Assembly (NCBI GenBank): GCA_965203055.1
Contig: OZ241863.1
Coordinates: 2,048,001 to 2,112,000, forward strand
Origin: Spirochaetia bacterium
Lineage (GTDB): Bacteria; Spirochaetota; Spirochaetia; SZUA-6; Bin103
Direction of reading: 5' to 3'
DNA length: 64,000 nucleotides
The translations under genes were made by a program, and so were the position numbers. How positions within the stretch are numbered: position 1 is the first letter of the stretch; the number at the start of each line of letters is the position of its first letter. Below are positions 5,642 to 38,650 of this stretch, piece by piece. Below the pieces are notes generated by a model that made no database searches, was not told the DNA's origin, and saw only the letters and a program-made list of their open reading frames with translations.

Positions 5642-6418
5642 ATGGGGCCGTTCTTGAGTTCAACATTCCGTATTCAATACGAACGGTTACCCTGTAATTA
5701 CGGGAGTAACGAGGAGCGCATGACACTTGCCGATGTCGAGCTTTACGTCCGCAATTATTGTGCGACTGAGTTGCACGAAAACCGCGCTAAGACCGTCCGT
5801 CGATCCGCTCGTTTGTCCGCTCTTCATCTGGCTGAGTGGTTCGCCTCCAATTGGTGGCGGCTGATTTGGGAACTCTGGGCAAACGACGCCTGGATGAGAG
5901 CAAAGCAGGCCGCTCGTATGGTACGGCAAGCGTGGCACTTGGACGGCCCGGCGACAACTTCCATGATCGCCAACATATTCGCAATCAGAGAGTCGGACCT
6001 GTCCGATTGCATGGCGAGTCCGATTCGTCCGGTGTCAGCCGGATTTCGTATTGGCGAAGAACCGGACCGGATGCGCATTGCGTGGCACATACGGTCGCCG
6101 GCCGGTCGCCGGTTCTCGCTGGCTCGCATGGTGGCTGATCATCTGGTATCTCCTTCAGAGGAGAGGCTTCTGCCGGTCACCAGGACGGTGACCGGCAGAC
6201 AGCAATTTCAGCGAGCATTTGCCCAGGAATTCCTGTGCCCTTATGACGCACTTCGGGAGGTAATCGGCGGCTCACCGAGCGTGGATGACATAGAGTATGC
6301 GGCTGATTACTTTGCGGTCTCGACCTGGGTAGTCGTATGCGCCTTCGTCAATAACGGCGCGTTGCCGCAAGAGACACTCGCTGACTGGGGCGTGAGCTTG
6401 GCTACGCAGAACTGGTAG
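5642..6418 (+). CDS. ImmA/IrrE (DUF955)-like protein lacking HExxH, possibly internally deleted
   Basis: RRFSLARMVADHL where RFTLAHELGH is expected; QRAFAQEFLCP and a C-terminal HTH-like AADYFAVS. Visibly lower GC than the flanks. Confidence 0.55.
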   Translation: MGPFLSSTFRIQYERLPCNYGSNEERMTLADVELYVRNYCATELHENRAKTVRRSARLSALHLAEWFASNWWRLIWELWANDAWMRAKQAARMVRQAWHLDGPATTSMIANIFAIRESDLSDCMASPIRPVSAGFRIGEEPDRMRIAWHIRSPAGRRFSLARMVADHLVSPSEERLLPVTRTVTGRQQFQRAFAQEFLCPYDALREVIGGSPSVDDIEYAADYFAVSTWVVVCAFVNNGALPQETLADWGVSLATQNW

Positions 6419-6423
6419 CTGGC

Positions 6424-7647
6424 ATGCTCGTCGAATTTTCCGTTGCCAACTTCAGATCGATCAAAGAGGAGGTACGCCTCAGTCTCGTGGCTGGTCCAGG
6501 CAAGGAGCACGCCAACTCGATCCTTACGGCCGAGAGTCGCGCCGAAACCGCCGCGCGGCCGCTCCGACTTCTGCCGTCCGCCGCGATCTACGGCGCGAAC
6601 GCGGCCGGCAAGACCAACGTGATTCGCGGCCTCAAGACGATGCATGACATCGTACTCGGCTCCGCCGCCCGCGGTCCTGCTGAACTCCCGGTGACCCCGT
6701 TCCGATTCGACCCGGCGTGCAGCGACCAACCGACGGCCTTCGAAGTGATGTGCATCGCCGACGGCGTTCGCTACCAGTACGGCTTCCGCGCGACCCGCAG
6801 CGAAGTAACTGAGGAGTGGCTCTATGCATGGCCGAGCGGACGGCTGCAAGTCTGGTTCGAGAGACGCAACGGGAAAGCGACCGGGGAGCCCTCATGGAAG
6901 CTTGGCGGAAAGCTCACGGGCGACCGGCAGGTCTGGAAGAGAGCAACTCGCCCGCAAGCCCTGTTCCTGGCAACGGCGGTCTCCCTCAACAGCACGCAAC
7001 TACGGCCGATCTTCGACTGGTTTCACAAGCGGCTCCATGTCGCCCGAGTCGAGAGATGGAGTCCCGTCTTCTCAGTGAACTACGCTAAGAACGGCGGAGC
7101 CGAAGTACTCGGCTTTCTCGCCGCGGCCGATCTTGCGGTAACAGGTCTGAGGATCGTAGAAAAGGAAATATCACCGGACCAATTTCCCGAAGAAATAGAG
7201 ATATTCTTGCAACATCAACCGAAAGAGGGACAGCAGGCGGAACTGGAAATGGCCGAGGAGTCGCACGGAACCCAGAAGATGTTTGCGCTTGCCGGTCCAT
7301 GGCTCGACACCCTGGCCAAAGGCAACGTCATCGTGTTCGATGAGCTGCACGATAACCTGCATCCCGCACTTGTCCGCTTTCTGGTCAGCCGGTTCCACAA
7401 TCCGACAACGAATCCGCACGGAGCGCAGCTCGTTTTCACGACGCACGATACGTCCATGCTCAATCGCGATTTGTTTCGGCCTGATCAGATCTGGCTCTGC
7501 GAGCGCAACGAACGCCTCGAAACCAGTCTCTTCCCGCTCAGCGACTTTCGGCCACGACGGGGTATCGAGAACCTGGAACGAGCATATCTGGCCGGCCGCT
7601 TCGGAGCGCTCCCTTACATCCGGTCAAGCGACCGGTCATCAGACTGA
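6424..7647 (+). CDS. AAA_21/ABC-type ATPase, RloA/AbiLi-like
   Basis: MLVEFSVANFRSIKE, GANAAGKT (Walker A), ESHGT signature, VFDE (Walker B), FTTH, YLAGRFGALP. Confidence 0.88.
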   Translation: MLVEFSVANFRSIKEEVRLSLVAGPGKEHANSILTAESRAETAARPLRLLPSAAIYGANAAGKTNVIRGLKTMHDIVLGSAARGPAELPVTPFRFDPACSDQPTAFEVMCIADGVRYQYGFRATRSEVTEEWLYAWPSGRLQVWFERRNGKATGEPSWKLGGKLTGDRQVWKRATRPQALFLATAVSLNSTQLRPIFDWFHKRLHVARVERWSPVFSVNYAKNGGAEVLGFLAAADLAVTGLRIVEKEISPDQFPEEIEIFLQHQPKEGQQAELEMAEESHGTQKMFALAGPWLDTLAKGNVIVFDELHDNLHPALVRFLVSRFHNPTTNPHGAQLVFTTHDTSMLNRDLFRPDQIWLCERNERLETSLFPLSDFRPRRGIENLERAYLAGRFGALPYIRSSDRSSD

Positions 7648-7650
7648 CCG

Positions 7651-8265
7651 ATGGCGGGAAAACCACGCGGACGCCGTGAGATTAGACAGAGGAAGAAAAC
7701 CGCACGGGAGATATACAAGCGAGTGCTCATCGTCTGTGAGGGCAAGAAAACAGAGCCTAACTATTTCCGGGATTTGGTAGATCGGCGTCGGCTGATCACC
7801 GCCGAAGTTGTGATCGATGGATTCGGATATGATCCCAGTAAGCTGGTCGCAACCGCGAAGTGTTTGAAGAAGAAAGAGATACAACGAGGAGATTCATATG
7901 ATGAAGTCTATTGCGTCTTCGACCGTGACCAACATGCACACTTCCAAAAGGCGTCTCGAGATGCCCAGAGCGCCAAGTTGAAGCTGGCCCGCTCCTGGCC
8001 GTGCTTCGAATACTGGCTGGTTTTGCATTTCGTCTATCATCGCGAGCCTTACTACCAATCGCGGTATTGCGTAAGGCACCTCAAGAAGTATCTGTACCGC
8101 TACACGAAGCGCATGGCCGGCGTGTACAAGAACCTGGAAGACCGACTGGAAACGGCGAAGTCGAATGCGAAGTGTGCCCTATCACACGCGGAGACAACAG
8201 GAGTACACGACCCGTCGACAGAAGTGCATCTCCTCGTCGCGTACCTGCAAGACCTCAAACCCTGA
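7651..8265 (+). CDS. rloB: RloB family protein
   Basis: LIVCEGKKTEPNYF, CVFDRD, SWPCFEYWLVLHF, DPSTEVHLLV; immediately follows the RloA-like ATPase. Confidence 0.9.
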   Translation: MAGKPRGRREIRQRKKTAREIYKRVLIVCEGKKTEPNYFRDLVDRRRLITAEVVIDGFGYDPSKLVATAKCLKKKEIQRGDSYDEVYCVFDRDQHAHFQKASRDAQSAKLKLARSWPCFEYWLVLHFVYHREPYYQSRYCVRHLKKYLYRYTKRMAGVYKNLEDRLETAKSNAKCALSHAETTGVHDPSTEVHLLVAYLQDLKP

Positions 8266-8274
8266 GCGGGCGCG

Positions 8275-9843
8275 TCAGCGGCCGGCCCGCTCTGTGGCGG
8301 CGCGTTGCCGGAGGGCGCGTTGCGCCGCCTGTTCCTCGACCAAGCCGCGGCGCAGGCGGCGGTACCGCTCCAGGTGCGGTTGATACTCGGCGTGCGCGGC
8401 CGGGTCGGGCAGCACCGCGGCGCCGCGCGTGCAGCACACCGCCACCGCCTGGTCCAGGCTGCCCCACCAGCCGGCCGCTATTCCCGCCAGCAGGGCCACT
8501 CCCAGCGCGCCCGGCTCGGCGTTGGCCGCCACCGCAAAGGCGCGGCCGGTCACGTCGGCAACAATCCGGCGCCATGCCGCGTCGTGCGCCCCGCCCCCCA
8601 ACAGGGTTATCGGCTCCGCAAACGCCGGCAGCAGATCAAGGCAATCCGCCACCGCGAACGCCAGCCCCTCATAGATACTGCGCAGTATCTCCCAGCGCGT
8701 GTGCTCCAGCCCCAATCCCGACAGCCGGCCGCGCGCGCGCGGCTCGTACACCGGCGCCAACACTCCGGTGCCGTTCAGGTAGGGGTGGAACGTCACGCCG
8801 CGGGCGCCGCGCGGCACCTCGGCGACCGCCGCCTGCAGCGCCGCTGCGTCCATCCCCGCGGCGCCGAACTCACGCCGGAACCAGTCCAGGGCGAGAGTCC
8901 CGGTCTGGTTCGGCATGGTGCGCGTCCAGCCGCCGGGGGGAATCAGAAAGCTCAACCCCACCCCGGCCGGCTCCCACACCGGCCGCTCGGTCACCACGCT
9001 GTTGAGGCACGACGAGCCGAGGATGGTGCCGGCCTGCCGCGCCCGCACCACGCCGCCGCCCACCAGCGCCGCTGATACGTCGGCCAACCCGGTGACCACG
9101 GGCGTGCCGGCCGGCATGCCGGTAGCCGCGGCCGCCGCCGCAGTCACGCGACCGGCCACGTCGCCGGACGGCAGCACCGGCGGCAGCAGGCCGCTCAACC
9201 CGCCAAGCCCCCAGGCCGCCATCAAAGGCAGCGAGAAGCCGCGCTGCAAGGCGTCGCCGGGCGCGTGGCTGGCGTCGCTGGCGTCGGTGGCCAGCTCGCC
9301 GGTAAGCCGGAAGCGGAGCCAATCCTTGGCGAACAGCAGGGTACGCGCCCGGGCCAGGACCTCCGGTTCATGGTCGCGCAGCCAGCGCAGCACCACCAGC
9401 GCGAAGCCCGGCGTAAGCGCGTTGCAGGAAATGGTGAAGCTGCGTTCGAGCAGGCCGGCCGCCCGCAGTTCGTCCAGCACCGCCACCGCCCGGGCGTCGT
9501 GCCACGCAACGGCGTTCCGTACCGGGCGCCCGTTCCGATCGACCAGCCACGCCCCGCCCATGAACGCGCTGATGCCCATGGCCTGGACCTGATGGCCGCC
9601 GCCAAGCCGTCCGGCGAGCGCGCGCAGGGTGGCCGCCGCCTGCCGCCACAGCCCCTCCATCGCCAGTTCCGCCCAACCCGGCCGGGGGGACTCGCAGATA
9701 GTCGCCGCCTGCGCCCGCGCCACTACCCGGCCGCGCTGATCGAACGCCGCGGCCTTGATCAGCGTGGTGCCGACGTCCACCCCGACCACCACCTCTGCCC
9801 GGCTGCGGGGCGCGCCCGGCCTGCTGGCAGGAGTCGGCGGCAT
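8275..9843 (-). CDS. FGGY-family carbohydrate kinase
   Basis: GVDVGTTLIKA, PRPGWAE, KDWLRFRLTG, TDASDAS, FHPYLNG, GGGA. GGAGG RBS before ATG 9843. Confidence 0.92.
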   Translation of the reverse strand: MPPTPASRPGAPRSRAEVVVGVDVGTTLIKAAAFDQRGRVVARAQAATICESPRPGWAELAMEGLWRQAAATLRALAGRLGGGHQVQAMGISAFMGGAWLVDRNGRPVRNAVAWHDARAVAVLDELRAAGLLERSFTISCNALTPGFALVVLRWLRDHEPEVLARARTLLFAKDWLRFRLTGELATDASDASHAPGDALQRGFSLPLMAAWGLGGLSGLLPPVLPSGDVAGRVTAAAAAATGMPAGTPVVTGLADVSAALVGGGVVRARQAGTILGSSCLNSVVTERPVWEPAGVGLSFLIPPGGWTRTMPNQTGTLALDWFRREFGAAGMDAAALQAAVAEVPRGARGVTFHPYLNGTGVLAPVYEPRARGRLSGLGLEHTRWEILRSIYEGLAFAVADCLDLLPAFAEPITLLGGGAHDAAWRRIVADVTGRAFAVAANAEPGALGVALLAGIAAGWWGSLDQAVAVCCTRGAAVLPDPAAHAEYQPHLERYRRLRRGLVEEQAAQRALRQRAATERAGR

Positions 9844-10745: not shown

Positions 10746-11735
10746 TCATCGCTCGAAGCCGCACTTGGCGGCGATCGCCTTCGCAAGCCGCTCGAAGTCC
10801 TCGTAGCAATCCTGCACCGCGTAGATGTGGCCGCCCAGGGCGCCGTCGGCCGCCCGCAGGTGGAACATCGGCTTGCGCGCCTCCCGAGCCATCGGCATCA
10901 GGCTGGGGTAATGCTTCAGCGTAGCCAGGCAGTGCGGGTCGTCGTCGATCGAGGAGACGCCCGGTCCGGTCCCATCGAGCGCTTCCTTGCGATACACGGC
11001 GGGAATGCGCCGGCTCCACCGCTGATACGCCAGCACGGGCCGGCCGGCCCTGACCGCGTTCCGGATCACGACGTACCCGGCCGGCGTGATCTCCGCCGAG
11101 GGCAGCGGCAGGCCCGGATCGCCGGGCGTCCGGTCGAGCCGATCCTGCCACTCCGTACGCCAGGCGCGCAGGGTGGGACCGAGGTTGCGGAGCCCCTGCA
11201 ACGAGAACAGGTCCGGGGCGAGCGGCACGACGACGAAGTCGGCGGCGATGATCGCCGCCCGGTTGATTGCCCCCAGATTGGGGCCGACGTCGACCAGCAC
11301 CACGTCCGCATCCTGCTTCCTGGCAGCCTGGAGAATCGTTCGGTAGAGCGCTGACTCGGCCCGAAAGGCGGATTCGTCGCCGTCCAGGCAGGCCGGCCAC
11401 GCCGCGGAGAGCTTCGCCTCGAAACGGGACAGACCCAGGTCGCCGACCACCAGGCCGCAGTTCGACGCGATTTCCTCCACGTGCGGTTCGCGGATGTCAC
11501 CAAGGCCCCTCAGAATCGGAGAGATCGCCCCGAGAATGGTCTGATGATGATCGCCGTCGGGCCACAGTTCTTCGAGCCGCTCCTCTTCGAGGAACATGGC
11601 GCTCAGGTTCGCTTGCGGGTCCAGGTCCGCGGCGACCACCGAAACGCCCCGTTCGGCGTACATCGAGGCGAGGTGGTAGACCAGCGACGTCTTTCCGACG
11701 CCCCCCTTGTTATTGAAGAACGCGATCGTCTTCAC
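10746..11735 (-). CDS. Orphan ParA/Soj-family ATPase
   Basis: FNNKGGVGKTS, DLDPQANLS, LVDVGPNLGAINRAA, PDLFSLQGL. No parB next to it; GTGA overlap with the upstream gene. Confidence 0.88.
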   Translation of the reverse strand: MKTIAFFNNKGGVGKTSLVYHLASMYAERGVSVVAADLDPQANLSAMFLEEERLEELWPDGDHHQTILGAISPILRGLGDIREPHVEEIASNCGLVVGDLGLSRFEAKLSAAWPACLDGDESAFRAESALYRTILQAARKQDADVVLVDVGPNLGAINRAAIIAADFVVVPLAPDLFSLQGLRNLGPTLRAWRTEWQDRLDRTPGDPGLPLPSAEITPAGYVVIRNAVRAGRPVLAYQRWSRRIPAVYRKEALDGTGPGVSSIDDDPHCLATLKHYPSLMPMAREARKPMFHLRAADGALGGHIYAVQDCYEDFERLAKAIAAKCGFER

Positions 11736-12916
11736 GTCTTGCTCCGAATGGTCACCAGCACGTGCGACGGCTCGAACCTGAACTCCGCCGTCGGGTTGCC
11801 GTTGCGGCGCAGCGCCTCCTGCGCGCGGATCACGCCGCGGCCGAACGCGTTGACGTACCCTAACGTCGCCATCGCCTCCGCGATCACCGGATTGCGGTAG
11901 TCCGTCTGCGCCGGAAAGTTCTCCGGGGAGGCCATTCCATACAGCCCGCCGGGGCTCTGAATCTCGATCCGATCATCGAACCAATTGAAGCGCACCGGCG
12001 CGTTCGATTCGTACGAGCGGTGCATGATAGCGTTGAGCAACAATTCGCGGACCGCCACCGCCGGGTAGTCGACGTGGGTCCGCTCCCGCAACATCGATTC
12101 GGCGACCGGACGCGCTTGCGTCTGAAGCGAAACATACGCCCGAATCTCGCGCAGCACCGAGAGCAAATCGCCGCTGAACCTTGCTTCGTCGAGCACCTCG
12201 TCCGCCATCGTCGTTCCCGCCCAGCGCACGAACTGGAGCCACGCTCCCGGAATCCACCGTAGAGGCTGCCTGGCGAACAGCAGGACGCCGGCGTGCGTAG
12301 GGCAGTCCGCCGCCAAGTCGTAGCAGCGAAGCGACGCCATCTGTTCCCTGAGATCGCGTTCGTTCTCCTCGATCACGTCTCGGCTGACCGCGGCGGGCAG
12401 GTAGCCCACCAGGAACAGGTCCGGGACCAGATCATCTAACGTGCAGCCGCGGCAGGGCCGCGCATCGAAGGTCCTCTGCAGAGCGGTCCGCCGCTCGGCC
12501 AGCAGCCGCTCCTCTTGCTGGTTCGCGCCGCGCCGGGACGGACCGACCCGAATCCACACCCGGCCCTTGTAGCGGACGGGCGGAAGGTCGGACGGCATGA
12601 CTTCCACGACCGCCACCTCACCCCCGGGCAGCACCTGCTTCTGCACCGTCAACGCGGGAGGCGGTTCCAGGTTGACGTTCGCGCGCAGATCCGCGAGTCT
12701 CCGCAACAGCCGGTCGCCAACGGTCAGGCCGCTTGCCTTGCCGGCGTCGTCGACCCCCACCAGGAGATAGCCGGGCTCCCGGTGATTCGGGAAGTCGTTG
12801 GCGAAGGCGCAGATCGCCTCACCGAACTTGTCCGTATCGTTCACGGCGACGGTCATCTCGACGCGGTCGGATTCGTGATCCGCCATCAGCGCGCGCAACT
12901 GGCCGGTGGTCAGCAT
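11732..12916 (-). CDS. Schlafen/AlbA_2 domain plus HATPase_c_4 (RecG C-terminal-like) ATP-binding protein
   Basis: ESDRVE…ICAFAND…GYLLVGVDD at the N-terminus; YPAVAVRELLLNAIMHRSY, IEIQSPGGL, YRNPVIAE, GRGV at the C-terminus. Confidence 0.85.
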   Translation of the reverse strand: MLTTGQLRALMADHESDRVEMTVAVNDTDKFGEAICAFANDFPNHREPGYLLVGVDDAGKASGLTVGDRLLRRLADLRANVNLEPPPALTVQKQVLPGGEVAVVEVMPSDLPPVRYKGRVWIRVGPSRRGANQQEERLLAERRTALQRTFDARPCRGCTLDDLVPDLFLVGYLPAAVSRDVIEENERDLREQMASLRCYDLAADCPTHAGVLLFARQPLRWIPGAWLQFVRWAGTTMADEVLDEARFSGDLLSVLREIRAYVSLQTQARPVAESMLRERTHVDYPAVAVRELLLNAIMHRSYESNAPVRFNWFDDRIEIQSPGGLYGMASPENFPAQTDYRNPVIAEAMATLGYVNAFGRGVIRAQEALRRNGNPTAEFRFEPSHVLVTIRSKT

Positions 12917-13112: not shown

Positions 13113-13538
13113 ATGAGCCGCCTGCAGAAGAGCAACGGTGACGACTTCCCCGAGGCCGCCGAGAAGCACCTCGAGGACGCAGTGGTTCTTATCGCCGGTG
13201 CTCGCTATGACGGCACTGCTTACCTGGTCGGATACGTGGTAGAGTGCACCTTGAAGACTCTCATTCAAATGCAAACAGGGCGGTTCCATCATTCGCACGA
13301 CCTTCAGGGCCTCGATAGCACGCTAGGGACTATCGCCGCTCAAGCGGATCGCAGGACGAAGCAGATGTACGCATCCGCCAGGAAGATTCTGAAGGGCGCT
13401 GATATACTTGCATGGAAACCGGGAATGCGTTACCAAGCTGCCTACGTCACTGGTTCCACCGCCGGAAAGTGGCTTCGAGAGGCTACGGCGATCTACTCCC
13501 GAATCATTGGCGAGCTGAAAAAGGACGGAAAGATCTGA
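13113..13538 (+). CDS. HEPN domain protein
   Basis: AEKHLEDAVVL…AYLVGYVVECTLK…HDLQGL…WKPGMRY matches the HEPN helical pattern. TGATG overlap with the next gene. Confidence 0.7.
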   Translation: MSRLQKSNGDDFPEAAEKHLEDAVVLIAGARYDGTAYLVGYVVECTLKTLIQMQTGRFHHSHDLQGLDSTLGTIAAQADRRTKQMYASARKILKGADILAWKPGMRYQAAYVTGSTAGKWLREATAIYSRIIGELKKDGKI

Positions 13539-14839
13539 TGATCCATGCCGACCAGGCTCACCGCCAGGCACGGGATTCTCTGACCGAATTTCTCCGGGAC
13601 AAGACGAGTACATGGCGCATCCTGTTGATCTTCGATTTGTTCTACCAACTCCGAATCATCCTGTGGTGCCCGAAGCAGAACTGGGAATCGTCCCGAACGG
13701 AGATCGACGAGACACTTAAGCAAGCATCCTCGGCCTATTGGTCCGGCGCGGTGCTCAAGGGCTGCGGACCGAAGGAATATCCCGACGGGCCGTGGCAGAA
13801 CGATGCATGGCAACAGGCCGCTGCCGTTCCGGAGACGAACAAACTGCGGATCGTGGAACGGCAGCGCACCAAGGAGGGCTGGTTCGAGGCCCCCGCCGAA
13901 CCTCCGTGGGCGGTTCTGAACGACAATCCGGCAATCGTCTCGTTCTATTCATTCAAGGGCGGCGTTGGCCGATCGACCGCGCTCGCGGCGGCGGCGCTGC
14001 ACCTGGCTGCCGCCGGCGAGCGCGTAGCGGTGGTCGACTTCGATCTCGATGCCCCGGGCGTCGGTTTTCTGTTGGCAGGACACGACGGCGCCACCGCGCA
14101 GTGGGGCGTCGCCGACTACCTGTTGGAGCAGCCGATCGTCGCCGAATACGGAGCCGGCTCCGGACCGGACCTCGCGGATTACTTCCACCGGTGTCCGACT
14201 TCGCTCTTCGCCGGGACGGGCGAGATCTCGGTGTTTCCAGCCGGGTCCGCCGATCGGCGCTACGTGGAAAAGCTGGCGCGACTGGACTACGGTGTTTCGC
14301 GCGGTCAGACGCATCCCTTCGTGCAACTCCTCCTGGAAATCCGCCAGCATCTCCATCCGCACTGGATACTCATCGACGCCCGCGCCGGACTCGGCAACGC
14401 ATCCGGCTTCGTGATGGGGGGCCTGTGCCACCTCCACGTGCTGGCAGCGACCTTGGCGGACGCGAGCTGGCGCGGTCTGGAGATGATTCTGGACCGGCTC
14501 GGAGCAGACCGGGTGCAGGCAGGGCAACCTCAAGCCGAATGCGTAATGGCGGCGGCGATGGTGCCTCGATCCCAGGAACGTCAATATCAGGAGTTGGTCG
14601 CGGCGTTCACCGACCGCGCCCGCGACGTGTTCAGCAACCACTACTACGCCGAGCGGGAACAGGAGGACAAGTTCTGGTCGTTGGATGACGTGGAGAGCAT
14701 CGACGCCCCCCACGTTCCGGTCGTCCTGCCATACGACGAGCGCCTCGCGCTGTTTCGCGAATTGAGCGAAGTGAGCAACGTTCTGCTCGATGGCGAGCCC
14801 TACAGGCAGCTCGCGGAACGGGTGCGATCGCGACGATGA
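13538..14839 (+). CDS. ParA/MinD-like ATPase with KGGVGR-variant Walker A and a long N-terminal extension
   Basis: SFYSFKGGVGRST, VVDFDLDAPG, GVADYLLE, LIDARAG. ATG 13538 overlaps the HEPN stop codon. Confidence 0.85.
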   Translation: MIHADQAHRQARDSLTEFLRDKTSTWRILLIFDLFYQLRIILWCPKQNWESSRTEIDETLKQASSAYWSGAVLKGCGPKEYPDGPWQNDAWQQAAAVPETNKLRIVERQRTKEGWFEAPAEPPWAVLNDNPAIVSFYSFKGGVGRSTALAAAALHLAAAGERVAVVDFDLDAPGVGFLLAGHDGATAQWGVADYLLEQPIVAEYGAGSGPDLADYFHRCPTSLFAGTGEISVFPAGSADRRYVEKLARLDYGVSRGQTHPFVQLLLEIRQHLHPHWILIDARAGLGNASGFVMGGLCHLHVLAATLADASWRGLEMILDRLGADRVQAGQPQAECVMAAAMVPRSQERQYQELVAAFTDRARDVFSNHYYAEREQEDKFWSLDDVESIDAPHVPVVLPYDERLALFRELSEVSNVLLDGEPYRQLAERVRSRR

Positions 14840-16416
14840 GCCGGAGACTCACCAAGCAGGCCTGCGCGGAGTTGCGTACCGAGCTCCGTGATCTTGGCCG
14901 CGGCCAAGCCGAAGCGGTAACTCCTGAGCCCGTTAGCCGCCGCCTGTATCCGGTACCGGAACATCTCAGGGCCCTCGACCCGAACGTAGTGCTGGTCGTC
15001 GGTCCGCGCGGCTCGGGAAAGAGCGAGCTGTTCAACACGTTCTTCAAGCACAGCGAACTCCGCGACACCATCTTGCGGTACGCCGCGACGCCCGTCCGGC
15101 TGATGATTCAGTCCTCGTCCGTAGCGTGGAAGCCGGCGTACCCGGCCGGAACGGAGTTTCCGGATAGTGCGGAATTGGAGCGGCGCATCGATTCGGACGC
15201 GCAAGCGAAGACGCTCTGGCACGTCATGCTGACACGAAGCCTCAACAACGAGTTCTCCACTTCGGTGAAGAAGCAGCTCAGACCTTTGACGGTGCCGACG
15301 GCGGCAGCCCTTGGCCCGATTTTAAACGCGATGCAGGATCTGCAGGTGAATCCCACGGCTGCGCTGGACTTGCTGGAAAAACGCTTGCATCGGGAGGACG
15401 GCTGGATCTTCGTCGGATACGACGAGCTGGACACACTGGGCGGTTCCAATTGGGACCTGATGGCCAGGCTGGTTCGCGGACTCGTTGCCTTCTGGTCCGA
15501 ATACGGCCGGCGGTGGCAGCGAATCCGGGCCAAGATCTTCCTGCGGTCCGACCTGTTTCGCCGTCACTCCGGCATGGGCACCGCTGACTTCGCCAAGCTG
15601 GCAGCCAACCGGTCCGAGTTGGCCTGGTCCGACGCCAACCTGCTCGGCATGCTAGTGAAGCGCATCGCCAACACCTCCGCGCCTCTGGCCGATTACTGCC
15701 GCGGAGCCAGAATCGCATTCGCTCAGGACCCGGCGCTTGGACTGCTGCCGAAGATCGGGCGGCCCGAGCACGCATATCCGCTGCTGGAGCGCATAGCCGG
15801 AGAGTACATGGGAGCCGGCCGAAAGAAGGGCTACGTGCGCAACTGGGTTCTCGATCATCTGCGCGACGGGAACGCGCAGGTCTCGCCCCGGACGCTGGTA
15901 CGCCTGTTCGAGCAGGCAGCTACGAAAGACGCCTCACATCGAACGCTGCGCGCGCCGAAGCTGCTGCATCCGACTGCCTTGCGGCTGGCGCTCGATGACG
16001 TATCCCGCGATCACGTGACGCAAGCGATCAGCAGCGAGTGGCCATGGCTCGAAGGCGTGCGGGACCGTCTCCGCGGACAGCCGCTCGTCCCATGGTCCCG
16101 CGAGGAAATCGTGAGCTTGTTGGAACGCGAATGGGACGGCGCGTGGGGTTCAGGCGAAAACCCCGACTTCCGGCCGCCGGAGGAACGGCCCGAACGTCTC
16201 GTAGATTACTTGGTCGAGCTCGGCATCTTCCGCCGGCGTTCGGATGACCGGATCGACGTGCCAGACCTCTATCTGCTTGGCCTCGACCTCCGCCGAAAGG
16301 GCGGCGTGCGACGGCGTATCGCGCCGCGGCGCCGCCAACCCGGCGGCGTAAGGTCGTCCGCTCGTCAGTCCGGGCCGGGGCTGCCGCGGCCGTCGGTCAG
16401 TTCCGGGAACTCGTAG
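14836..16416 (+). CDS. P-loop NTPase, Sll1717-like
   Basis: VVGPRGSGKS (Walker A), FVGYDELD (Walker B), KIFLRSD, SPRTLVRL and a wHTH-like LVELGIF…VPDLY end. ATGA overlap with the upstream gene. Confidence 0.78.
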   Translation: MSRRLTKQACAELRTELRDLGRGQAEAVTPEPVSRRLYPVPEHLRALDPNVVLVVGPRGSGKSELFNTFFKHSELRDTILRYAATPVRLMIQSSSVAWKPAYPAGTEFPDSAELERRIDSDAQAKTLWHVMLTRSLNNEFSTSVKKQLRPLTVPTAAALGPILNAMQDLQVNPTAALDLLEKRLHREDGWIFVGYDELDTLGGSNWDLMARLVRGLVAFWSEYGRRWQRIRAKIFLRSDLFRRHSGMGTADFAKLAANRSELAWSDANLLGMLVKRIANTSAPLADYCRGARIAFAQDPALGLLPKIGRPEHAYPLLERIAGEYMGAGRKKGYVRNWVLDHLRDGNAQVSPRTLVRLFEQAATKDASHRTLRAPKLLHPTALRLALDDVSRDHVTQAISSEWPWLEGVRDRLRGQPLVPWSREEIVSLLEREWDGAWGSGENPDFRPPEERPERLVDYLVELGIFRRRSDDRIDVPDLYLLGLDLRRKGGVRRRIAPRRRQPGGVRSSARQSGPGLPRPSVSSGNS

Positions 16417-16988: not shown

Positions 16989-18581
16989 TTACATCCCCCA
17001 CACCGTGATGGACGCGCCGGCGCCCGCCTCCCGGCGGCGGAACAGCTTCTCCCGCCACTCCTTGCCGGGCGTGCGGTCGAAGATCACCAAGTGGCCTTCG
17101 GCGGCCCCGCATCGGTCCAGGTAGCCGCGGGTCTGCGCCACCCCCTCGCGGATGGCGCGATCCAGGCCGCCGCGCAGCAGCTTGCACTCGATCACCATGC
17201 GCCGGGTCCGCTCCGGCGGCGCGCCGGCCGGCCATACGATCAGCAGGTCGGTGCGCATCCGCCCCAGCCCATACTCGCGCTCCACCCGGCCACCGGAGTT
17301 GACGATGCGCTGCAGGAACGCCTGCAGCAGCAACTGCGGCCCCGCCTCCCGGTACTGGAAGCGCTCGAGCCAGTGCTCGGAGTGCTCGCGGAAGAACTCC
17401 TGAAACGCCGCCAGCAGCTTGCTCAGGTTCAGTCCGGCGTCCGGTTCCACGTACCAGGCGGGGTCGTGCGGCAGGAACTCCTGGGTGGTCCACGTGATGG
17501 CGCGCGGAATGACCTCCCGGTAGATCGGATTTGCGACGCGCACCGGCGGATCGACCGCCACCAGCCCCAGGTCGCGCACGTACTGCAGATCGTCGGCGCG
17601 GATGGTCCCGGGCGCCGGGCTGCCGCTCAGCAGCGGGCCGATCACCCGCCGCACGCGCTCCTCCTGCAGCTTGTCGGCGAGCTGGTCCAGATGGGTCTCG
17701 CGGCGCAGGATGAGGCGCTCGCGGGCGGCGTGGACCGCTTCGGCGCTGATGGTGCGGGTGCGGTCGCGCCCCGCTTCGCCGCCGGAGCACGCCTCCCGGG
17801 CCAGCGCGTTGACCAGCCACGGCTGCCCGGCGGTCAACTCCCACACCGCCTGCAGGGCCGCGTCGGCGAACCTTTGTCCGGTTTCGGCGGTGTGCTGAGC
17901 GAGCAGCTCCCCTGTTTCGGTCTGCGCAAAGTCGCCCAGGCGCAACGACGCGGCCTTGACGTTGAACGCGCTGCCGCCGGTGATGACGTCGTTCTGCGCC
18001 GCGGAACGGATGCGGTAATCGCGCACGTCGCGCACGCCGCACAGGATCACGCTCTGCGGGAAGCCGTCCGGCCGCTCGTCGTAGCCGGCGCGCAACTGGC
18101 GCAGCACCGCGATCAGCGTGTCGCCGACCAGCGCGTCGATCTCATCGATCAGCAGCACCAGCGGCGTCGGGTCGGCCTCCGCCCAGCGCACCAGCACTTC
18201 CTGAAGCGCCCCTTCCGGGCCGAAGGTCGTCAGAATGCCGGGCCAGAGGCTCGCCAGCGACTCGTCGCCCAGGGTCCGGCGCGCCCGCGTCCCCAACGCC
18301 CCCAGAATGGCGCGCATCCCCCGCCCCACGTGCTCGCGGGCCGCCTGGCCGATCTCGACGTTCACGTAGACGCAGCGGTAGGCGCCCGCGGTCCCGCTGT
18401 TCAGCAGGTCGCGCAACGCCAGCAGGGCGGAGGTCTTGCCGGTCTGCCGGGGCGCGTGCAGCACGAAGTAGCGCTTGTCGCGGATCAGCGCCAGCACCTC
18501 GTCCAGATTCACCCGCTGCAGCGGCGGAATGCAGTAATGATCGGCGGCCACCACCGGCCCCGAAGTGTTGAAGAAACGCAT
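16989..18581 (-). CDS. AAA-like ATPase with C-terminal PD-(D/E)XK-like domain (copy 1)
   Basis: MRFFNTSGP, HAPRQTGKTS, LLIDEID, GQPWLVNAL, RTDLL…VIECK. Confidence 0.88.
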   Translation of the reverse strand: MRFFNTSGPVVAADHYCIPPLQRVNLDEVLALIRDKRYFVLHAPRQTGKTSALLALRDLLNSGTAGAYRCVYVNVEIGQAAREHVGRGMRAILGALGTRARRTLGDESLASLWPGILTTFGPEGALQEVLVRWAEADPTPLVLLIDEIDALVGDTLIAVLRQLRAGYDERPDGFPQSVILCGVRDVRDYRIRSAAQNDVITGGSAFNVKAASLRLGDFAQTETGELLAQHTAETGQRFADAALQAVWELTAGQPWLVNALAREACSGGEAGRDRTRTISAEAVHAARERLILRRETHLDQLADKLQEERVRRVIGPLLSGSPAPGTIRADDLQYVRDLGLVAVDPPVRVANPIYREVIPRAITWTTQEFLPHDPAWYVEPDAGLNLSKLLAAFQEFFREHSEHWLERFQYREAGPQLLLQAFLQRIVNSGGRVEREYGLGRMRTDLLIVWPAGAPPERTRRMVIECKLLRGGLDRAIREGVAQTRGYLDRCGAAEGHLVIFDRTPGKEWREKLFRRREAGAGASITVWGM

Positions 18582-18781
18582 CGCTCCCAATCGGCGTCTG
18601 ACTGATCTCAGCGCCGGAATCCCGCCGCCGCTGCCCACGGAAATACCTGACAACTCATTTTCTCGGTGCAAGGTCTCGACATTTGGCCAACGGTATCCTA
18701 TATCTGATCTGACAAAGTGAGTAGCGCGCGCGCCGCGGCATGCCGTGATCGATGCTGCGCGAGCTGCCGGAGGAGAGGAAT

Positions 18782-19093
18782 ATGGGCGAAAAGACGACGA
18801 CGGTCAGCGCTCTGCGCCAGCAACTGATCGAAAAGGCGACCGCGGACCGCGAGTTTCGCAACCAATTGATGGCGGACCCCAGGACCGCGATCGAGGCGGA
18901 AACCGGCCTGACCGTGCCCTCCGAGTTCAACGTCGAGGTGCACCAGGACACGGCGACTACCGGTCACTTGATCCTGCCGCCCTCCGCCGAGCTCGGGGAA
19001 GCCGACCTGGCGCAGGCCGCCGGCGGCATCGACTGGTCCGGAGTGGGGCAATGGGAATATGGCAGGACCTACGACGAGGTGATGAACTCGTAG
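18782..19093 (+). CDS. NHLP (nitrile hydratase-like leader) RiPP precursor, proteusin type
   Basis: LIEKATADREFRNQLMADPRTAIEAETG…VEVHQDT…HLILPP…ELGEADLAQAAGG leader (82 aa) plus a 21-aa core. GGAGAGGA RBS upstream. Confidence 0.88.
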   Translation: MGEKTTTVSALRQQLIEKATADREFRNQLMADPRTAIEAETGLTVPSEFNVEVHQDTATTGHLILPPSAELGEADLAQAAGGIDWSGVGQWEYGRTYDEVMNS

Positions 19094-22000
19094 CCGGCAC
19101 GGCCGCGGCGCGGGCTTCGGCGGCGGCGCGGCCGGCGTTGAGCGCGAGCAGGCGGGCGAGCGCTTCGTCGCGGACCGCGTCGGGCCAGCGGTAGCGGCAG
19201 GGTTTCTTCTTGCGGCCCCAGGCGGCCTCGTCGATCGCATAGTCGAGGAGGAAGTCGCAGGCGGTGGGAAGGTCGCTCCAGCCGTAGGCGTCGAGCACGG
19301 CGCGGTCCATGGCGGCATGCAGTTCGCGGAGCTTGGCGATGCGCGGGTCGGTCTCGTAGAGGTCGTGGAAGCGGTTGTAGGTCCGCGTCATGCCTTCGCC
19401 GTTGTCCACCATGAGCGCCGCGCGGTAGTCGTAGTACGCTTTGCCGGCGGCTTCGAGGGCGGGATGAGTGTCCCGGCCTTCCGGGAACGGGAAGGTCTCG
19501 AAGCAGTCGGAGGGAGTATACGTGAGTCGGTCTTCCAGTGAAGACCCGAGAAATCGGGACCATATCTCATGAATTCGAGATTGGAGCACACAGAATAATT
19601 GGCAGCTCTCGCTGGGAAAGATGACGAGTCGATCACTGTACACCGCCGCTGACCGAAGGAACGCGAACCCCGTGTGCTCACTGACTCGAGAGATTGCCAG
19701 CACTCGGTCCAGGCCGGCGATGGCGCCGCCATAGAGTTCCTTGGCGGTCGATCCGTAGCGCCACCAGAACTTGGCGCGTTTCCTGCCGATGGCGTTCCTG
19801 CTGAGCTTGGCGCGTTCCGGCTTGACCCGCTCCTCGACAATCGCCATCAAGTCCGGCCAGCGCCGACGGCACTCAGCCTCGCTTCGCTCGCCGAAGTTGA
19901 TGACGTAACGATGGTGCGCGTGAGTCGGGCTGGTGTTCACCTCCTCGCCGCCGACGTAGGGGAAGATCACCTCGCGGTTGCGCGGGTCCTGATCGATCAG
20001 CCGCCGCATCTCGGCGAGCGGTGATGCCACTCCCTTCCGGTCGGTGTCGTCGAAGGTGAATCCCATGCCGAGCACGATGCTGCCCTGAAAGCTCTTGCCG
20101 GCGTTGGCCGCCAGCCGCACCGGATCGGCATGCCCGCCCCGATGAAACAGAAACGCCGTGACGCGCTCCACCGGGGCGCCGTCGAGCGTCCTCCTGCCCG
20201 ACGACTTGCCCTTCTCTATGTGTACCACGCTGACGACGACCGCGGCATCGCCAGGCCATTTGACCCGCTTGGTGGCGCGGTAGATATGACCGCCATGCTC
20301 GCAGATCCAGCGCAGGCCGCTGGAACGGGTGTCACCCTGGGCGATGGTGTTGGTGGCGATCAGGCCGAACGCGCCGCCGCCGCGCAGCAGGTCGAACGCG
20401 CGCCGGTAGAAGTGCGCCACCAGGTCGGCGTTGCCGTGGCTCTGCGCGTGCAGTTCCTTGAGCCAGCTCGGATAGCCGGCGACGTTGCCGGCGGCAACGT
20501 TGTTCTTACCCGCGAACGGCGGGTTGCCGACGAAGCCGTCGAAGCCCGGGTTCGCGCGCTCGAACACCTCGGGAAACTCGATTTCCCAGTGGAACGGCGC
20601 GAACGGCTTTTCTTGAGTGTTACGGCGCGTCTTCAACTCCGCGGCGTGGCGCCACCCCTGCCGCGTGAGAATCGCTTCCTGGTACGCCTCCAGACGCGCC
20701 GCGCGCTCCTTCGGCTTCGAGCCCTCGAAGAACGCCGCCAGCGTCAGATCGCCGAACCGCCGCACCTCCGCCAGCGCGTCCTGCGCGCGGCGCCACAGCG
20801 TCTGCAACTGCCGGTCGGTCACGGTGTCGTCCGCTTCCCGAATCCGGCGCCGCAACTCAGATGCCTCCGCCAACTTCTCGCGCACCCCGAAGCCGGCCAG
20901 GATCGGCTGTCCGCCCTGCCAGTGCAGCGCTTCGATCTGCCGCCGCGTCAGCCCCACGAGCGAATCGCCGCGGCGGAAGGCGTGGTCCACGAAGGTGAAC
21001 GGATGGTCGCGCGCCAGCGTGCTCAGCCACAGCGACACCTTGGCCAAGTCTACCGCCATCGGGTTGCGGTCGATGCCGTACAGACACTTCTGGGCCACCA
21101 GCCGGCGCGCGAAGGTCACCTCGTCCTCATCCGCCGGGATGTCAGGCAGCGCTCCGTGCGCGCCCCACGCCTCGATCAGCGCGTCGGCAAGCTGGCGGCA
21201 GGTCTCCACCAGAAACGCCCCCGATCCCATCGCCGGATCGCAGATCTTGAGATCGAGGACCTGCTCCGGGCGCGGCGGGCCGCCGTCCTCGCCGCGCAGC
21301 CGCTCCAGCAGCGGCGCCAGCGTATGGCGCACGATCGGCTCGGTCAGCTCCCGCGGCGTGTAGTGCGAGCCGGAACGGCGCCGCTCCTCGTTGGGCTGCA
21401 GCACCAGCCCGCCGCGGGGCACCAGGTCCGGCGTCGCGGCGTGATCCAGCACCCGGTCCAGCACCGCGTGCAGGTCGTTCACCGTGTGCGCCGCGCGCAG
21501 CCCCTTCGCGACCGCGGCGCTGACTGGGCGGTCCGCCCGCTCCTGCAGCCAGCGTCCGCGGCGCGCGGGGGGCTGCGCCAGCAGCGCGTCCAGGTCGATG
21601 GTGGTGGGCGCCCCCAACTTCTTCGCCGGCTTGATCGCCAGCGAGCGCCCGGTCGCGGTCTCCAGGCGAAACCCCATGATCGTCTCGTACACCGAGCCGA
21701 TCTGCTCCACGTCCAGCGTCCGGTAGGAGAGTCGCTCCCCGTCCAGCACCAGCAGCTTTTCCAGCACCCGGTAGACCACCCCGTCCGACACCCGCGGCGG
21801 CTCCAGCCGCGCGTTCCGCTGCCGCGACCCGCTGCCGCGGCGGCCCTCCAGGAACCGGTAGCGGTCCGGGTCGAACAGCGCGCCGCGGCGCTCCGGCAGA
21901 CTCACCGCGCCGCCGGTGCGGTCGGCCGGCACCCCGTCGTGGAGCAGGCGAAACAGCACCACCAACTGCGCCCAGGCGCCGTAGCGCTGATCCATCGTGT

Positions 22001-23018
22001 CCGGGTAGGCCGCGGCGTCCTTGCGCAGCCGCCGGTAGAGGCCGCCCAGCAAGTAGTGGCGCGCGAAGGTCTCGTCCTTTGGCAGCAGGCCGCGCTCCTC
22101 CGCGTACAGCAGGAACACCAGCCGCAGGATCACGGTGAGCAGCCCGCGGTAGATGGCGTTGCGGTCCCCGCCGGCCGCCAGCGGCTCGCTCAGCAGCGCG
22201 CCGTCGGTGGCGGCATGGGCGTTCTGGAAGCCGCGCACCAGTTCGTACAGCGCATGCAGCACCTGCTCGGCGAGGCGCTCGGAAACTTCGTTCTGATACA
22301 GCCGGCTGTCGGCCAGCACCGCGGTGAGGCGTTCATGACGCGGCAGCGCCAGCAGGCGCTGCTCGGAGAGGAGCAGGTGCAGGGCGGAGCAGAGCGGGCG
22401 CCCGGCGGTGGTGAGCAGGTCGGCGAAGCGGAAATCGATCCAGCCGGAACTCTCGCCGTGCGGGGCGGAGATCAGGCGCAGCGCAACGCCGTTGACCAGC
22501 ACGCCGGCGCGCACCCCGGTGGCGCGCAGCAGGCGTTCCGCGCGCCCCTGGGCGGATGCGTCCAGCCCGCCGGCGCCGGGCGCCGGGCGGTCGAACTCCT
22601 GGCCGGCGGCCAGCACCTGCACCAGCAGTTGCCACGCCGAGTCGCCGTTGCCGGGGTCGCGTTCGCGCACCGCGAAGTCGGGGCGCAGGGTCTCGCCGTA
22701 ATCGGGCAACGGCAGCGTGAGCTCTTCAGGGATCGGAGTTTCTGCAGTGAAGCCGGCGTAGCCCCGGGGCGAGAAGCCCCAGCCGAGCACCGCGGCGGCG
22801 AACTCGCGGAAGTCGCGGATGCACGGCTGCGGGTTGCCGCCCGGCGTGAGCGCCCGTTCCTCGGCGCAGCCGGCGAGCAGCGCCTGCCGGTGGGTATCCT
22901 GGCGGTTGACGAACGCCCCCGCCTTGAGCAGCGCCGGCGGCGACACCACCAGACCGTGCGGCTGGATGAACCCCAGCCATTCCAGGTGCGCGCGCGTGTT
23001 CGGATCGGCAGCAGGCAT
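18957..23018 (-). CDS. Large type IIG/IIL restriction-modification N6-adenine methyltransferase (Eco57I/MmeI-like; resembles DISARM DrmMI)
   Basis: LDVEQIGSVYE, GSHYTPREL, DPAMGSGAFL, FHWEIEFPEVF, GNPPF, YTPSDCFETFPFP, YNRFHD, LHAAMDRAVLDAYGW. Confidence 0.88.
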   Translation of the reverse strand: MPAADPNTRAHLEWLGFIQPHGLVVSPPALLKAGAFVNRQDTHRQALLAGCAEERALTPGGNPQPCIRDFREFAAAVLGWGFSPRGYAGFTAETPIPEELTLPLPDYGETLRPDFAVRERDPGNGDSAWQLLVQVLAAGQEFDRPAPGAGGLDASAQGRAERLLRATGVRAGVLVNGVALRLISAPHGESSGWIDFRFADLLTTAGRPLCSALHLLLSEQRLLALPRHERLTAVLADSRLYQNEVSERLAEQVLHALYELVRGFQNAHAATDGALLSEPLAAGGDRNAIYRGLLTVILRLVFLLYAEERGLLPKDETFARHYLLGGLYRRLRKDAAAYPDTMDQRYGAWAQLVVLFRLLHDGVPADRTGGAVSLPERRGALFDPDRYRFLEGRRGSGSRQRNARLEPPRVSDGVVYRVLEKLLVLDGERLSYRTLDVEQIGSVYETIMGFRLETATGRSLAIKPAKKLGAPTTIDLDALLAQPPARRGRWLQERADRPVSAAVAKGLRAAHTVNDLHAVLDRVLDHAATPDLVPRGGLVLQPNEERRRSGSHYTPRELTEPIVRHTLAPLLERLRGEDGGPPRPEQVLDLKICDPAMGSGAFLVETCRQLADALIEAWGAHGALPDIPADEDEVTFARRLVAQKCLYGIDRNPMAVDLAKVSLWLSTLARDHPFTFVDHAFRRGDSLVGLTRRQIEALHWQGGQPILAGFGVREKLAEASELRRRIREADDTVTDRQLQTLWRRAQDALAEVRRFGDLTLAAFFEGSKPKERAARLEAYQEAILTRQGWRHAAELKTRRNTQEKPFAPFHWEIEFPEVFERANPGFDGFVGNPPFAGKNNVAAGNVAGYPSWLKELHAQSHGNADLVAHFYRRAFDLLRGGGAFGLIATNTIAQGDTRSSGLRWICEHGGHIYRATKRVKWPGDAAVVVSVVHIEKGKSSGRRTLDGAPVERVTAFLFHRGGHADPVRLAANAGKSFQGSIVLGMGFTFDDTDRKGVASPLAEMRRLIDQDPRNREVIFPYVGGEEVNTSPTHAHHRYVINFGERSEAECRRRWPDLMAIVEERVKPERAKLSRNAIGRKRAKFWWRYGSTAKELYGGAIAGLDRVLAISRVSEHTGFAFLRSAAVYSDRLVIFPSESCQLFCVLQSRIHEIWSRFLGSSLEDRLTYTPSDCFETFPFPEGRDTHPALEAAGKAYYDYRAALMVDNGEGMTRTYNRFHDLYETDPRIAKLRELHAAMDRAVLDAYGWSDLPTACDFLLDYAIDEAAWGRKKKPCRYRWPDAVRDEALARLLALNAGRAAAEARAAAVPATSSSPRRRSCHIPIAPLRTSRCRRRPAPGRLPRARRRAAGSSDR

Positions 23019-37741: not shown

Positions 37742-38650
37742 ATGGACGGCACTGGCGCGTACAGCGACTTCACGACCCGCCTGAAGCTGTTGATCGGGAA
37801 GCGGCCTGACCTAATCACCACGACGCTCAGCAATATCTTTACGATGAGGCTGATCGGAAACAAGACCCACGGCGACTTGGCCGAGATCGCGGTATCCGAG
37901 TTCATCAACCAGTATATGTATGACTTTCGCTCCGTCCACGTAGGCAAGGACCGGTATCGAAAAAAAAACTCAGGAGGAAGACATCCTGATCACCAATGAG
38001 ATCACCAAAGCCGAGTTTCCGGTTAGTCTCAAGGCGTATGGCTACGGTGATCTGCAACTATCAACGGACAAGAATCATTTAATGTATACTCGTCTGAAAA
38101 ATGAAGGAAAAAAATTGTCGGTAAAAAGGTTAAGAAGATCCTCGACGAGAAGGTTTTCTCCGGTTTCAATAATATACTTTCTTTGATCTACGACGAGAAG
38201 AATAAACGTTGTAACATTCTAGTGTTCGACTACGCTCGCGCCCGCAGCTCTACCGTAAAGATCATTCGTGAGGAACCTGGACGACGAAGGAAACATCCCG
38301 TGTACCGGTTCTACGATGCGGATAGTCGCTACATATGTGAAGTTCGTTACGGCGGCACAGACGCGAACGCACTTCAGAGAGGACTCTGGACCAACACGAG
38401 GAACGGTATCGAGTATTTCGAAAGCATCACCAACGGCTGGATATGCTACTCCCACAATCACACTCTGGTGAAACTGTTTTCACACGCTCTCGTCGCATCA
38501 GATACCGGCCACACAGCTGCACTTCCGAAGATTAGTGAAGACATTGCTCAATTGAAGCGGGGATTGGGGCCGCGGCCGCGGCGGCGACGGCGCAGGCGGA
38601 AGCGAAGCAGACCGCTGCGGCAGTGCCGGTCAGGGCGGTGGCTGAGGTGA
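37742..38650 (+). pseudogene. Putative type II restriction endonuclease with two frameshifts
   Basis: An AT-rich continuous frame is restored if A9 (37960-37968) and A7 (38108-38114) are both read as A8; the repaired middle reads EEDILI…VSLKAYG (PD-(D/E)XK-like). Its stop overlaps the methylase GTG. Confidence 0.65.

Follow-up and report, generated by a model that had tools for sequence, protein, structure and literature searches.

The open reading frame (ORF) at positions 18782-19093 of the Spirochaetia bacterium DNA analyzed here (64,000 nucleotides of contig OZ241863.1, assembly GCA_965203055.1, positions 2,048,001 to 2,112,000; hereafter the window) is a genuine precursor gene with a nitrile hydratase-like leader peptide (NHLP). 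On balance, and with no great confidence, we favour the interpretation that it is a working satellite member of an NHLP family with several copies, and that its product is prenylated on Trp in trans by an enzyme from another part of the genome, cleaved at its double glycine and exported. Coordinates are those of the window unless they are marked as genome positions or preceded by a locus name.

The gene lies on the forward strand, starts with the ATG at 18782 and encodes 103 amino acids. An earlier note on this DNA, made from the letters alone, had called it an NHLP precursor and named the hidden Markov model (HMM) TIGR03793 (leader_NHLP, NCBIfam) as a check; the model upheld the call with 62.0 bits against a cut-off of 50.9 (E 3.5e-17), aligning precursor residues 10-82 to model positions 4-77 of 77. 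The Nif11-like leader model TIGR03798 reached 19.7 bits against 32.3, and Pfam gave only sub-threshold matches to NHase_alpha and Frankia_peptide. The note's description of the gene also held. A putative ribosome-binding site, GGAGGAGAGG, can be read at 18769-18778, the NHLP leader (residues 1-82, 18782-19027) ends in LGEADLAQAAGG, and the core, IDWSGVGQWEYGRTYDEVMNS (residues 83-103, 19028-19090, or 19028-19093 with the stop codon), comprises 21 residues, including two Trp and two Tyr, and lacks Cys. The leader end reads L71GEADL76AQAAG81G82, which is an L(X)4L motif (18992-19009) followed by the predicted double-glycine cleavage site (19022-19027). Residues L71, G72, E73, A74, D75, L76, G81 and G82 are invariant in all 21 aligned relatives, as is W85 (19034-19036) in the core, while W91 (19052-19054) is kept in 19 of the 21; these two Trp residues are the candidate acceptors. 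Upstream of the start codon, a putative 5' untranslated or regulatory part of the gene (18608-18781, forward strand) is conserved both in blastn comparisons and in the alignment of paralogs. Two reports give L(X)4L and GG elements roles in binding C39 domains, SrpI and MppC (PMC10858898, PMC12715784).

Twenty-six database homologs of the precursor were found, five of them with the same core, which takes the precursor call far beyond chance; PF27793 is annotated on two of the homologs. The window core is 86-100% identical in the five orthologs (0-3 changes), whose leaders are 78-96% identical, and this degree of core identity points to a conserved product and not to read-through noise. A codon comparison with the ortholog at locus L030, which is described below, gave one synonymous and three non-synonymous differences in the core and 8 and 16, respectively, in the leader, numbers that are too small to judge selection.

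The window gene is one of many. Family searches covered the whole genome (G000), which is a single contig and an estimated 95.9% complete, and the TIGR03793 search returned 12 matches, 11 of them over the cut-off, at eight places, as the earlier note had anticipated in proposing a genome-wide set of precursors. Seven copies share the window-type leader at 77-97% identity (group A) and carry the cores IDWSGVGQWEYGRTYDEVMNS (window), MGWSFQW, IDWSFTPPALPYG, FSWDNVGW, INWSALTRP and IDWSVPGGGGGGMGDISLDW; the seventh copy is frameshifted. In the DNA alignment of this group, homology runs from about 150 nt before the ATG to just past the GG-x-x-W-S codons, and the cores diverge directly past GG-x-x-W-S/D. 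The other five copies form group B, in which four have long FWDD-containing cores, three of these ending in ...GGPRHNA(D/S).

No gene for YcaO, LanC/LanM, Radical_SAM or Peptidase_C39 was found by Pfam in the 47 window ORFs (those picked by a codon-position GC filter and a few added from the ORF list), in agreement with the earlier note. With no maturase or exporter within these 64 kb, the gene product would be matured in trans, and the suggestion of a dispersed precursor library that is matured in this way gains support. An export system is present elsewhere in the genome. Among 42 ORFs neighbouring the precursors and 16 further ORFs that were scanned with Pfam and NCBIfam, we found an NHLP exporter at genome 951876-958052, next to one precursor, which consists of a C39 peptidase ATP-binding cassette (ABC) protein, a partner ABC protein and an HlyD-like adaptor. 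The C39 peptidase/permease/ATPase matched TIGR03796 with 905.3 bits (cut-off 853.3) and the partner matched TIGR03797 with 728.3 bits (cut-off 709.4); the match to the HlyD model TIGR03794 was partial, at 83.9 bits against 156.2, on a 313-aa ORF call. The earlier note had held that the gene would be a relic if neither a maturase nor an exporter existed anywhere in the genome and it was not expressed; the genome has this exporter and, in addition, a candidate maturase of ABBA fold, a kind that the note had not considered.

The candidate maturase is P0001 (genome 3856950-3858077), an ABBA-fold prenyltransferase-like protein encoded about 1.79 Mb from the window gene, with a paralog, P0002, at genome 1722028-1723164. 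The two proteins, of 375 and 378 aa, are 60% identical and are the only copies in the genome. P0001 comes directly after the FSWDNVGW precursor and P0002 after an FWDD precursor, each starting no more than about 50 nt downstream. Database searches found 178 homologs of the 375-aa protein, all of them lacking Pfam domains, and an exhaustive profile search put the size of the family at 2,720 clusters at 50% identity (E<=1e-3), or 1,604 at E<=1e-10. An AlphaFold2 model from a 39-sequence alignment has a mean predicted local distance difference test (pLDDT) score of 89.5 and a repeated helix-helix-strand-strand pattern; P0001, as modelled, has the prenyltransferase-barrel fold of repeated alpha-beta-beta-alpha units. 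Among 51 family members, the most distant at 23% identity, no substitution was seen at six residues, E59, D128, R209, K336, K348 and Y350, all of which map to predicted strands or next to them. In ABBA prenyltransferases, a prenyl-diphosphate site with a catalytic acid needs an acid together with basic or Tyr residues, and by analogy the six invariant residues (two acids, three basic residues and a Tyr) could form such a site. In a language-model search, the closest set with a name was a Trp_DMAT cluster (0.90); we regard this as no more than a lead.

Enzyme and precursor are also linked in other genomes. We scanned 39 enzyme loci (one genome per species, metagenome-assembled genomes), finding leaders with the leader HMM. 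At least one NHLP precursor was present within about 6 kb in all 39, several loci held 8-14 precursors, and in 32 a precursor ended no more than 700 nt upstream of the enzyme on the same strand. The decisive locus is L030, where a precursor with the window-type core (…GGIDWSGVGQWQEGRTYDEVRNS), a WSWDEVGWR precursor and an enzyme 85% identical to P0001 follow one another; an ortholog of the window core shares one operon with the enzyme there. Of 31 related genomes, eight held members of the leader family; exactly these eight also held the enzyme family, and neither occurred in the other 23; these genomes are kin and not independent, and the co-occurrence is to be read as a profile and not as a statistic.

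The cores found beside the enzymes are rich in Trp. From 126 precursor matches, 121 could be parsed, yielding 97 distinct cores, of which 86 contain Trp. It is the last residue in 33 and falls among the final three residues in 47, and its share of all core residues is 8.2%; the 11 cores that lack it mostly have Tyr near the end. An FWD motif occurs in 17 of the 97 cores and any Cys in only 10. Clusters of neighbouring genes were typed by Pfam on a few members each; one, present in 18 loci, is an ABC transporter (three members scanned). A cluster of 401-aa antisense ORFs in 25 loci was rejected as a probable by-product of the way ORFs are called across precursor genes; the member scanned also spans a DUF1844 gene.

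Taken together, these findings suggest the following route for the window peptide. The 103-aa precursor would be made, and its folded NHLP leader with the L(X)4L region would dock on soluble P0001, which would place a prenyl group on W85, W91 or both. The C39-peptidase ABC exporter (genome 951876-958052) would then cut after G81-G82 and secrete a lipidated linear peptide of 21 residues. We infer prenyl transfer from fold and context, and likewise which Trp is modified, the length of the prenyl chain, the action in trans on the window copy and its expression. Judged by sequence relationships, P0001 is the likelier partner than P0002, because the precursor adjacent to it has the nearest leader (77%, vs about 50% for that of P0002) and because its ortholog is linked to the window core in L030. 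A predicted complex of P0001 with the precursor was set aside and counted neither way. It gave an ipSAE interface score of 0.59 (runs of 0.56, 0.59 and 0.62), vs 0.02 for the best of three controls, with a partner pLDDT of at least 71 and agreement between runs in at least 68% of contacts, and was classed as "weak support". In the calibration, 116 of 157 solved complexes passed the mark, as did 2 of 215 mismatched pairs; the zone at or below 0.60, into which the prediction falls, holds only 18 of the 157 solved complexes and both of the passing mismatches.

Leader-dependent prenylation of Trp has a precedent in MppC, an ABBA enzyme that acts on a lanthipeptide substrate with a Nif11 leader (PMC12715784), and the accessible parts of another report describe an NHLP precursor with a prenylated Trp, PalX, and its enzyme PalQ in Paenibacillus alvei (PMC10853753). 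[quoted passage not shown] The same report also reveals differences: PalQ belongs to the isoprene-synthase superfamily (all-helical, ComQ-like), whereas P0001 is modelled as an ABBA barrel; PalQ is strictly selective for a C-terminal Trp, whereas the window core ends in ...VMNS; and the PalX cluster consists of one precursor and a histidine kinase, in contrast to the 12 leader copies with no kinase nearby in our genome (PMC10853753). In a third report, SrpE/SrpI also combines an NHLP-type precursor with a modification of Trp that depends on the leader and on L(X)4L, but SrpI is a flavin halogenase that acts on a thiazoline-containing LCCCW core, and our genome is without Trp_halogenase and YcaO matches (PMC10858898).

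MppE/MppC from Moorena producens PAL is similar in that MppC is a soluble alpha-beta-beta-alpha prenyltransferase that needs a long, structured leader with L(X)4L, and it alkylates the indole of a core Trp, as P0001 may do by analogy (PMC12715784). It differs in that MppE has a Nif11-like leader and MppC prefers a LanM-made lanthionine ring, whereas the window precursor has an NHLP leader and a Cys-free core (PMC12715784). Cyanobactin F-family enzymes such as PagF and KgpF are ABBA barrels that prenylate side chains of ribosomal peptides, including Trp, and they do so independently of a leader on excised, mostly macrocyclic cores, unlike the leader-guided action proposed for P0001 (PMC12715784, PMC10853753). 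This family was absent among the 50 structural matches listed for P0001 and gave no NCBIfam match, and the two may still be related. Bacterial indole prenyltransferases of the DMATS type (MpnD, CymD, PriB and IptA) act on free Trp or small indoles, whereas P0001 is linked to peptide precursors; the two are 8-13% identical in structural alignments, and P0001 has no Trp_DMAT or PTase_Orf2 match. In the prochlorosin system (ProcA/ProcM), many dispersed precursors with a conserved long leader and hypervariable cores are processed by one enzyme in trans. Our system would resemble it in its dispersed precursor library, its shared leader and the single enzyme that we propose to act in trans, but ProcM performs lanthionine chemistry on Cys-containing cores, whereas the cores of our system are poor in Cys and rich in Trp, and its enzyme is of prenyltransferase fold.

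Sequence comparison indicates that the window gene arrived secondarily, as a cassette of about 0.46-0.49 kb, flanked by an AAA_22 ATPase paralog on one side and, on the other, by the 3' end of the gene for a DISARM-type methyltransferase paralog. The ATPase gene lies at 16989-18671 on the reverse strand (Pfam AAA_22, no PADLOC match). The methyltransferase, a DrmMI-like type IIG enzyme encoded at 18957-23018 on the same strand, matches PADLOC DrmMI with 1289 bits over residues 6-1313, as well as Pfam Eco57I, MmeI_Mtase and MmeI_TRD. Both are neighbours of the peptide system and not parts of it, and the precursor ORF overlaps the 3' tail of the methyltransferase ORF in antisense with its final 137 nt (18957-19093). 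Blastn aligned window 18608-19096 with L030 5061-5541 at 88% identity, and 18611-19038 with a paralog at genome 2118356-2118786 at 96%. Homology on the ATPase side ends at about 18583-18587 (window 18000-18587 has counterparts of 72-82% identity at 19 other places in the genome), and DNA homology of the methyltransferase side to seven paralogs starts at 19106, which puts the cassette junctions at about 18587/18608 and at 19096/19106. The methyltransferase paralogs end 8-30 residues past ...AAEARAG with other tails; the window ORF has lost this tail, which the cassette replaced, and continues instead for about 49 codons, rich in Arg, in antisense to the precursor gene until it meets a stop at 18957. 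Contigs from runs X3 and X6 bridge the 3' junction, and contigs from X1, X3, X5 and X6 the 5' junction, with at most one differing letter; these short contigs stem from two studies, and the source sample may belong to one of them. In X1, X3 and X5, contigs also lead from 19096 directly to 18634 again, with one additional letter, marking the ends of the unit, and these joins imply that relatives in those samples carry the cassette in tandem, as in L030.

Several observations weigh against prenylation in trans of a functional window copy. The gene lies 1.79 Mb from the enzyme and was inserted secondarily into a defence island, a sigma-70 consensus scan of 18450-19350 found no promoter site, and two other copies in the genome have decayed, one (genome 1335929-1336336, forward strand) through a leader frameshift at 1335929 and one of group B (genome 1723992-1724396, reverse strand) through an in-frame TAG in the leader at 1724109. 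On the enzyme side, the P0001 family matched nothing in Pfam or NCBIfam, including Trp_DMAT, PTase_Orf2 and LynF/TruF, its profile found no prenyltransferase among PDB sequences, and 20 sampled distant members gave no relevant Pfam match; the prenyltransferase assignment rests on fold and context, and a fold is no proof of function. The window core, unlike 33 of the 97 distinct cores, does not end in Trp, with 12 residues following the second one, and other enzymes such as JmjC_2 oxygenases accompany many loci of the family and may act as well. The genomic points among these could mean that the window gene is a relic that recombination brought into the defence island and that has ceased to be expressed or processed, with only operon-linked precursors serving as substrates. 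A cassette wedged between paralog blocks that replaced the native tail of a methyltransferase, the two pseudogenes and the empty promoter scan are all in keeping with a relic, as is the finding that neighbouring copies at genome 2117-2118 kb abut fragments of methyltransferase genes. We nevertheless regard it as unlikely, if deserving of serious attention, since the ORF is intact and has retained the homology over roughly 150 nt upstream as well as the ribosome-binding site, its core is conserved in the five orthologs, and both junctions are bridged by contigs from the two studies.

Other readings leave the gene functional and change its chemistry. The peptide could be cleaved and exported by the NHLP C39/ABC system without modification, in the manner of class II bacteriocins or signalling peptides, for which the exporter would suffice; that no maturase is encoded nearby and that this core, unlike most, is not Trp-ended would also fit. 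The operon shared by the enzyme and a window-core ortholog in L030, the restriction of both families to exactly the same eight of 31 genomes and the invariance of W85 argue against an unmodified product, which we judge to be rather unlikely. It is improbable, in our estimation, that the ABBA-fold protein performs a different leader-guided task, such as another kind of alkylation, cyclisation or a non-catalytic chaperone role, perhaps together with a JmjC oxygenase, so that the product is modified and not prenylated. The lack of any sequence link to a characterized prenyltransferase would suit such a role, as would the enzymes that recur beside the family: a neighbour cluster in 18 of the 39 loci is a JmjC_2 oxygenase (two members scanned), and an FAD_binding_4/cytokinin-dehydrogenase-like oxidase comes directly after the enzyme in five loci (L050:7096-8565, forward strand, and likewise L051-L054; one member scanned). 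The earlier note had looked instead to chemistries known for other precursors, namely splicing at an XYG motif by a radical SAM splicease, triceptide crosslinking and Trp halogenation, any of them by an enzyme elsewhere in the genome. The window copy does have E-Y-G and aromatic residues, and in a genome that is 95.9% complete a missing gene is conceivable. However, Tyr93 of the EYG is kept in only one of the five database orthologs (E or Q in the other four) and is E in the L030 ortholog, so that XYG is no feature of this peptide. The genome has no match to SPASM (PF13186; the control was positive in 8 of 14 genomes), to Trp_halogenase (PF04820; positive in 6 of 14) or to YcaO; Radical_SAM, the kind of enzyme that as an epimerase or C-methyltransferase partners proteusins in the narrow sense, was absent from the 47 window and 42 neighbour ORFs, PF04055 not having been run genome-wide, and the empty LANC_like search is uninformative, as its control was positive in no genome. 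The empty YcaO search and the Cys-free core also do not suit the TOMM or lanthipeptide kinds of NHLP product, which would go with YcaO or LanC-like enzymes and with cores rich in Cys, Ser and Thr. The missing SPASM and Trp_halogenase matches and the poorly kept Tyr disfavour splicease, triceptide and halogenase alike, and we consider these chemistries highly improbable. Trp prenylation in trans is our preferred reading.

Some further observations concern the precursors and their surroundings. A TCGACA...TATATC pair upstream of the window precursor was seen by eye and fails the sigma-70 rule of the scanner. The shifted frame of the copy at genome 1335929-1336336 still spells, as read by eye, YDWSTFGQNW, a core that homologs P0129 and P0133 also have. 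The core IDWSFTPPALPYG, which also occurs in database homolog P0132, belongs to the copy at 2118 kb (L013:10300-10700, reverse strand), where it continues into 48 residues from a methyltransferase paralog, a fragment that corresponds to residues 627-674 of the window methyltransferase at 83% identity. A 19-residue methyltransferase piece recurs after the next copy (L013, about 9600-9750; genome 2117.6-2118.4 kb), and a duplicated hsdM gene end can be seen by eye after that copy in the DNA alignment. A 525-aa ORF beside the precursor at 2482 kb has no Pfam or NCBIfam match. Transposase_31 genes (Rpn/YhgA-like nucleases, by Pfam) directly adjoin three of the eight NHLP precursor places, examples being L013:8068-9180 (reverse strand), L019:10300-11412 (forward strand) and L015:11397-12428 (reverse strand). 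With 57 Transposase_31 matches genome-wide, the rough chance expectation for such adjacency is about 0.3, vs the three seen, and both kinds of gene may simply gather in the same islands.

The oxidative enzymes that neighbour the family deserve mention in their own right. FAD oxidases of the kind found at L050-L054 act on prenyl side chains in other pathways, and their position would fit a prenylated intermediate. The sole JmjC_2 oxygenase gene of our genome (L015:6931-8247, genome 1719931-1721247, reverse strand) lies divergently beside the FWDD precursor and P0002, an arrangement that recurs in related loci and suggests a hydroxylation step for the FWDD group.

The earlier note had also placed the window gene among defence genes, and PADLOC confirmed this. 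In addition to the DrmMI-like methyltransferase, the window contains an AbiLi/AbiLii pair (6424-8265), a pAgo/SIR2-associated-like protein (11732-12916) and a PDC-M28B/C pair (13412-16416), all matched by PADLOC. A second AAA_22 ATPase is encoded at 42355-43935 on the forward strand (Pfam AAA_22, again with no PADLOC match). The segment at 5642-8265 (forward strand), which holds AbiLi/AbiLii (AAA_21 and RloB), has a GC content of 58.8% in a window of about 68%, which suggests recent acquisition. Two overlapping forward-strand ORFs at 38623-39261 and 39224-39781, in a stretch of 58.4% GC, match positions 10-178 and 198-381 of PDLC03342 as the halves of one type II (D12-class) methyltransferase model, and the gene looks split by a frameshift.

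A broader possibility, which we put forward as speculative and unlikely, concerns the unit of about 0.46 kb (regulatory region, leader and GG-x-D-W-S). It could be a cassette that recombines and thereby spreads among defence islands with many Rpn-type nucleases and restriction-modification paralogs, and that sometimes fuses to DNA at its landing site to make new cores; one copy has a core that continues into a piece of a methyltransferase gene. One promiscuous leader-guided member of a very large, unannotated prenyltransferase family would then lipidate the whole library in trans. If true, this would be a natural engine for combinatorial lipopeptides.

In conclusion, the system is distinctive in its combination of an NHLP leader, linear Cys-free cores, an ABBA family without Pfam domains and dispersed, multi-copy precursors. 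A full-text literature search, which did not cover most subscription journals, found no paper that pairs NHLP precursors with an ABBA prenyltransferase, and the pairing may have been published. If the enzyme does prenylate, it would provide a third route to Trp-prenylated RiPPs with long leaders besides PalQ and MppC, one that uses linear Cys-free NHLP peptides and a large enzyme family annotated in no database. For the lipidation of peptides, a leader-guided, sequence-tolerant Trp prenyltransferase, if that is what the enzyme is, would be of practical use as well. The precursors of this system lie far from the enzyme as well as next to it, which means that cluster-based mining would take the distant ones for orphans and count too few products.

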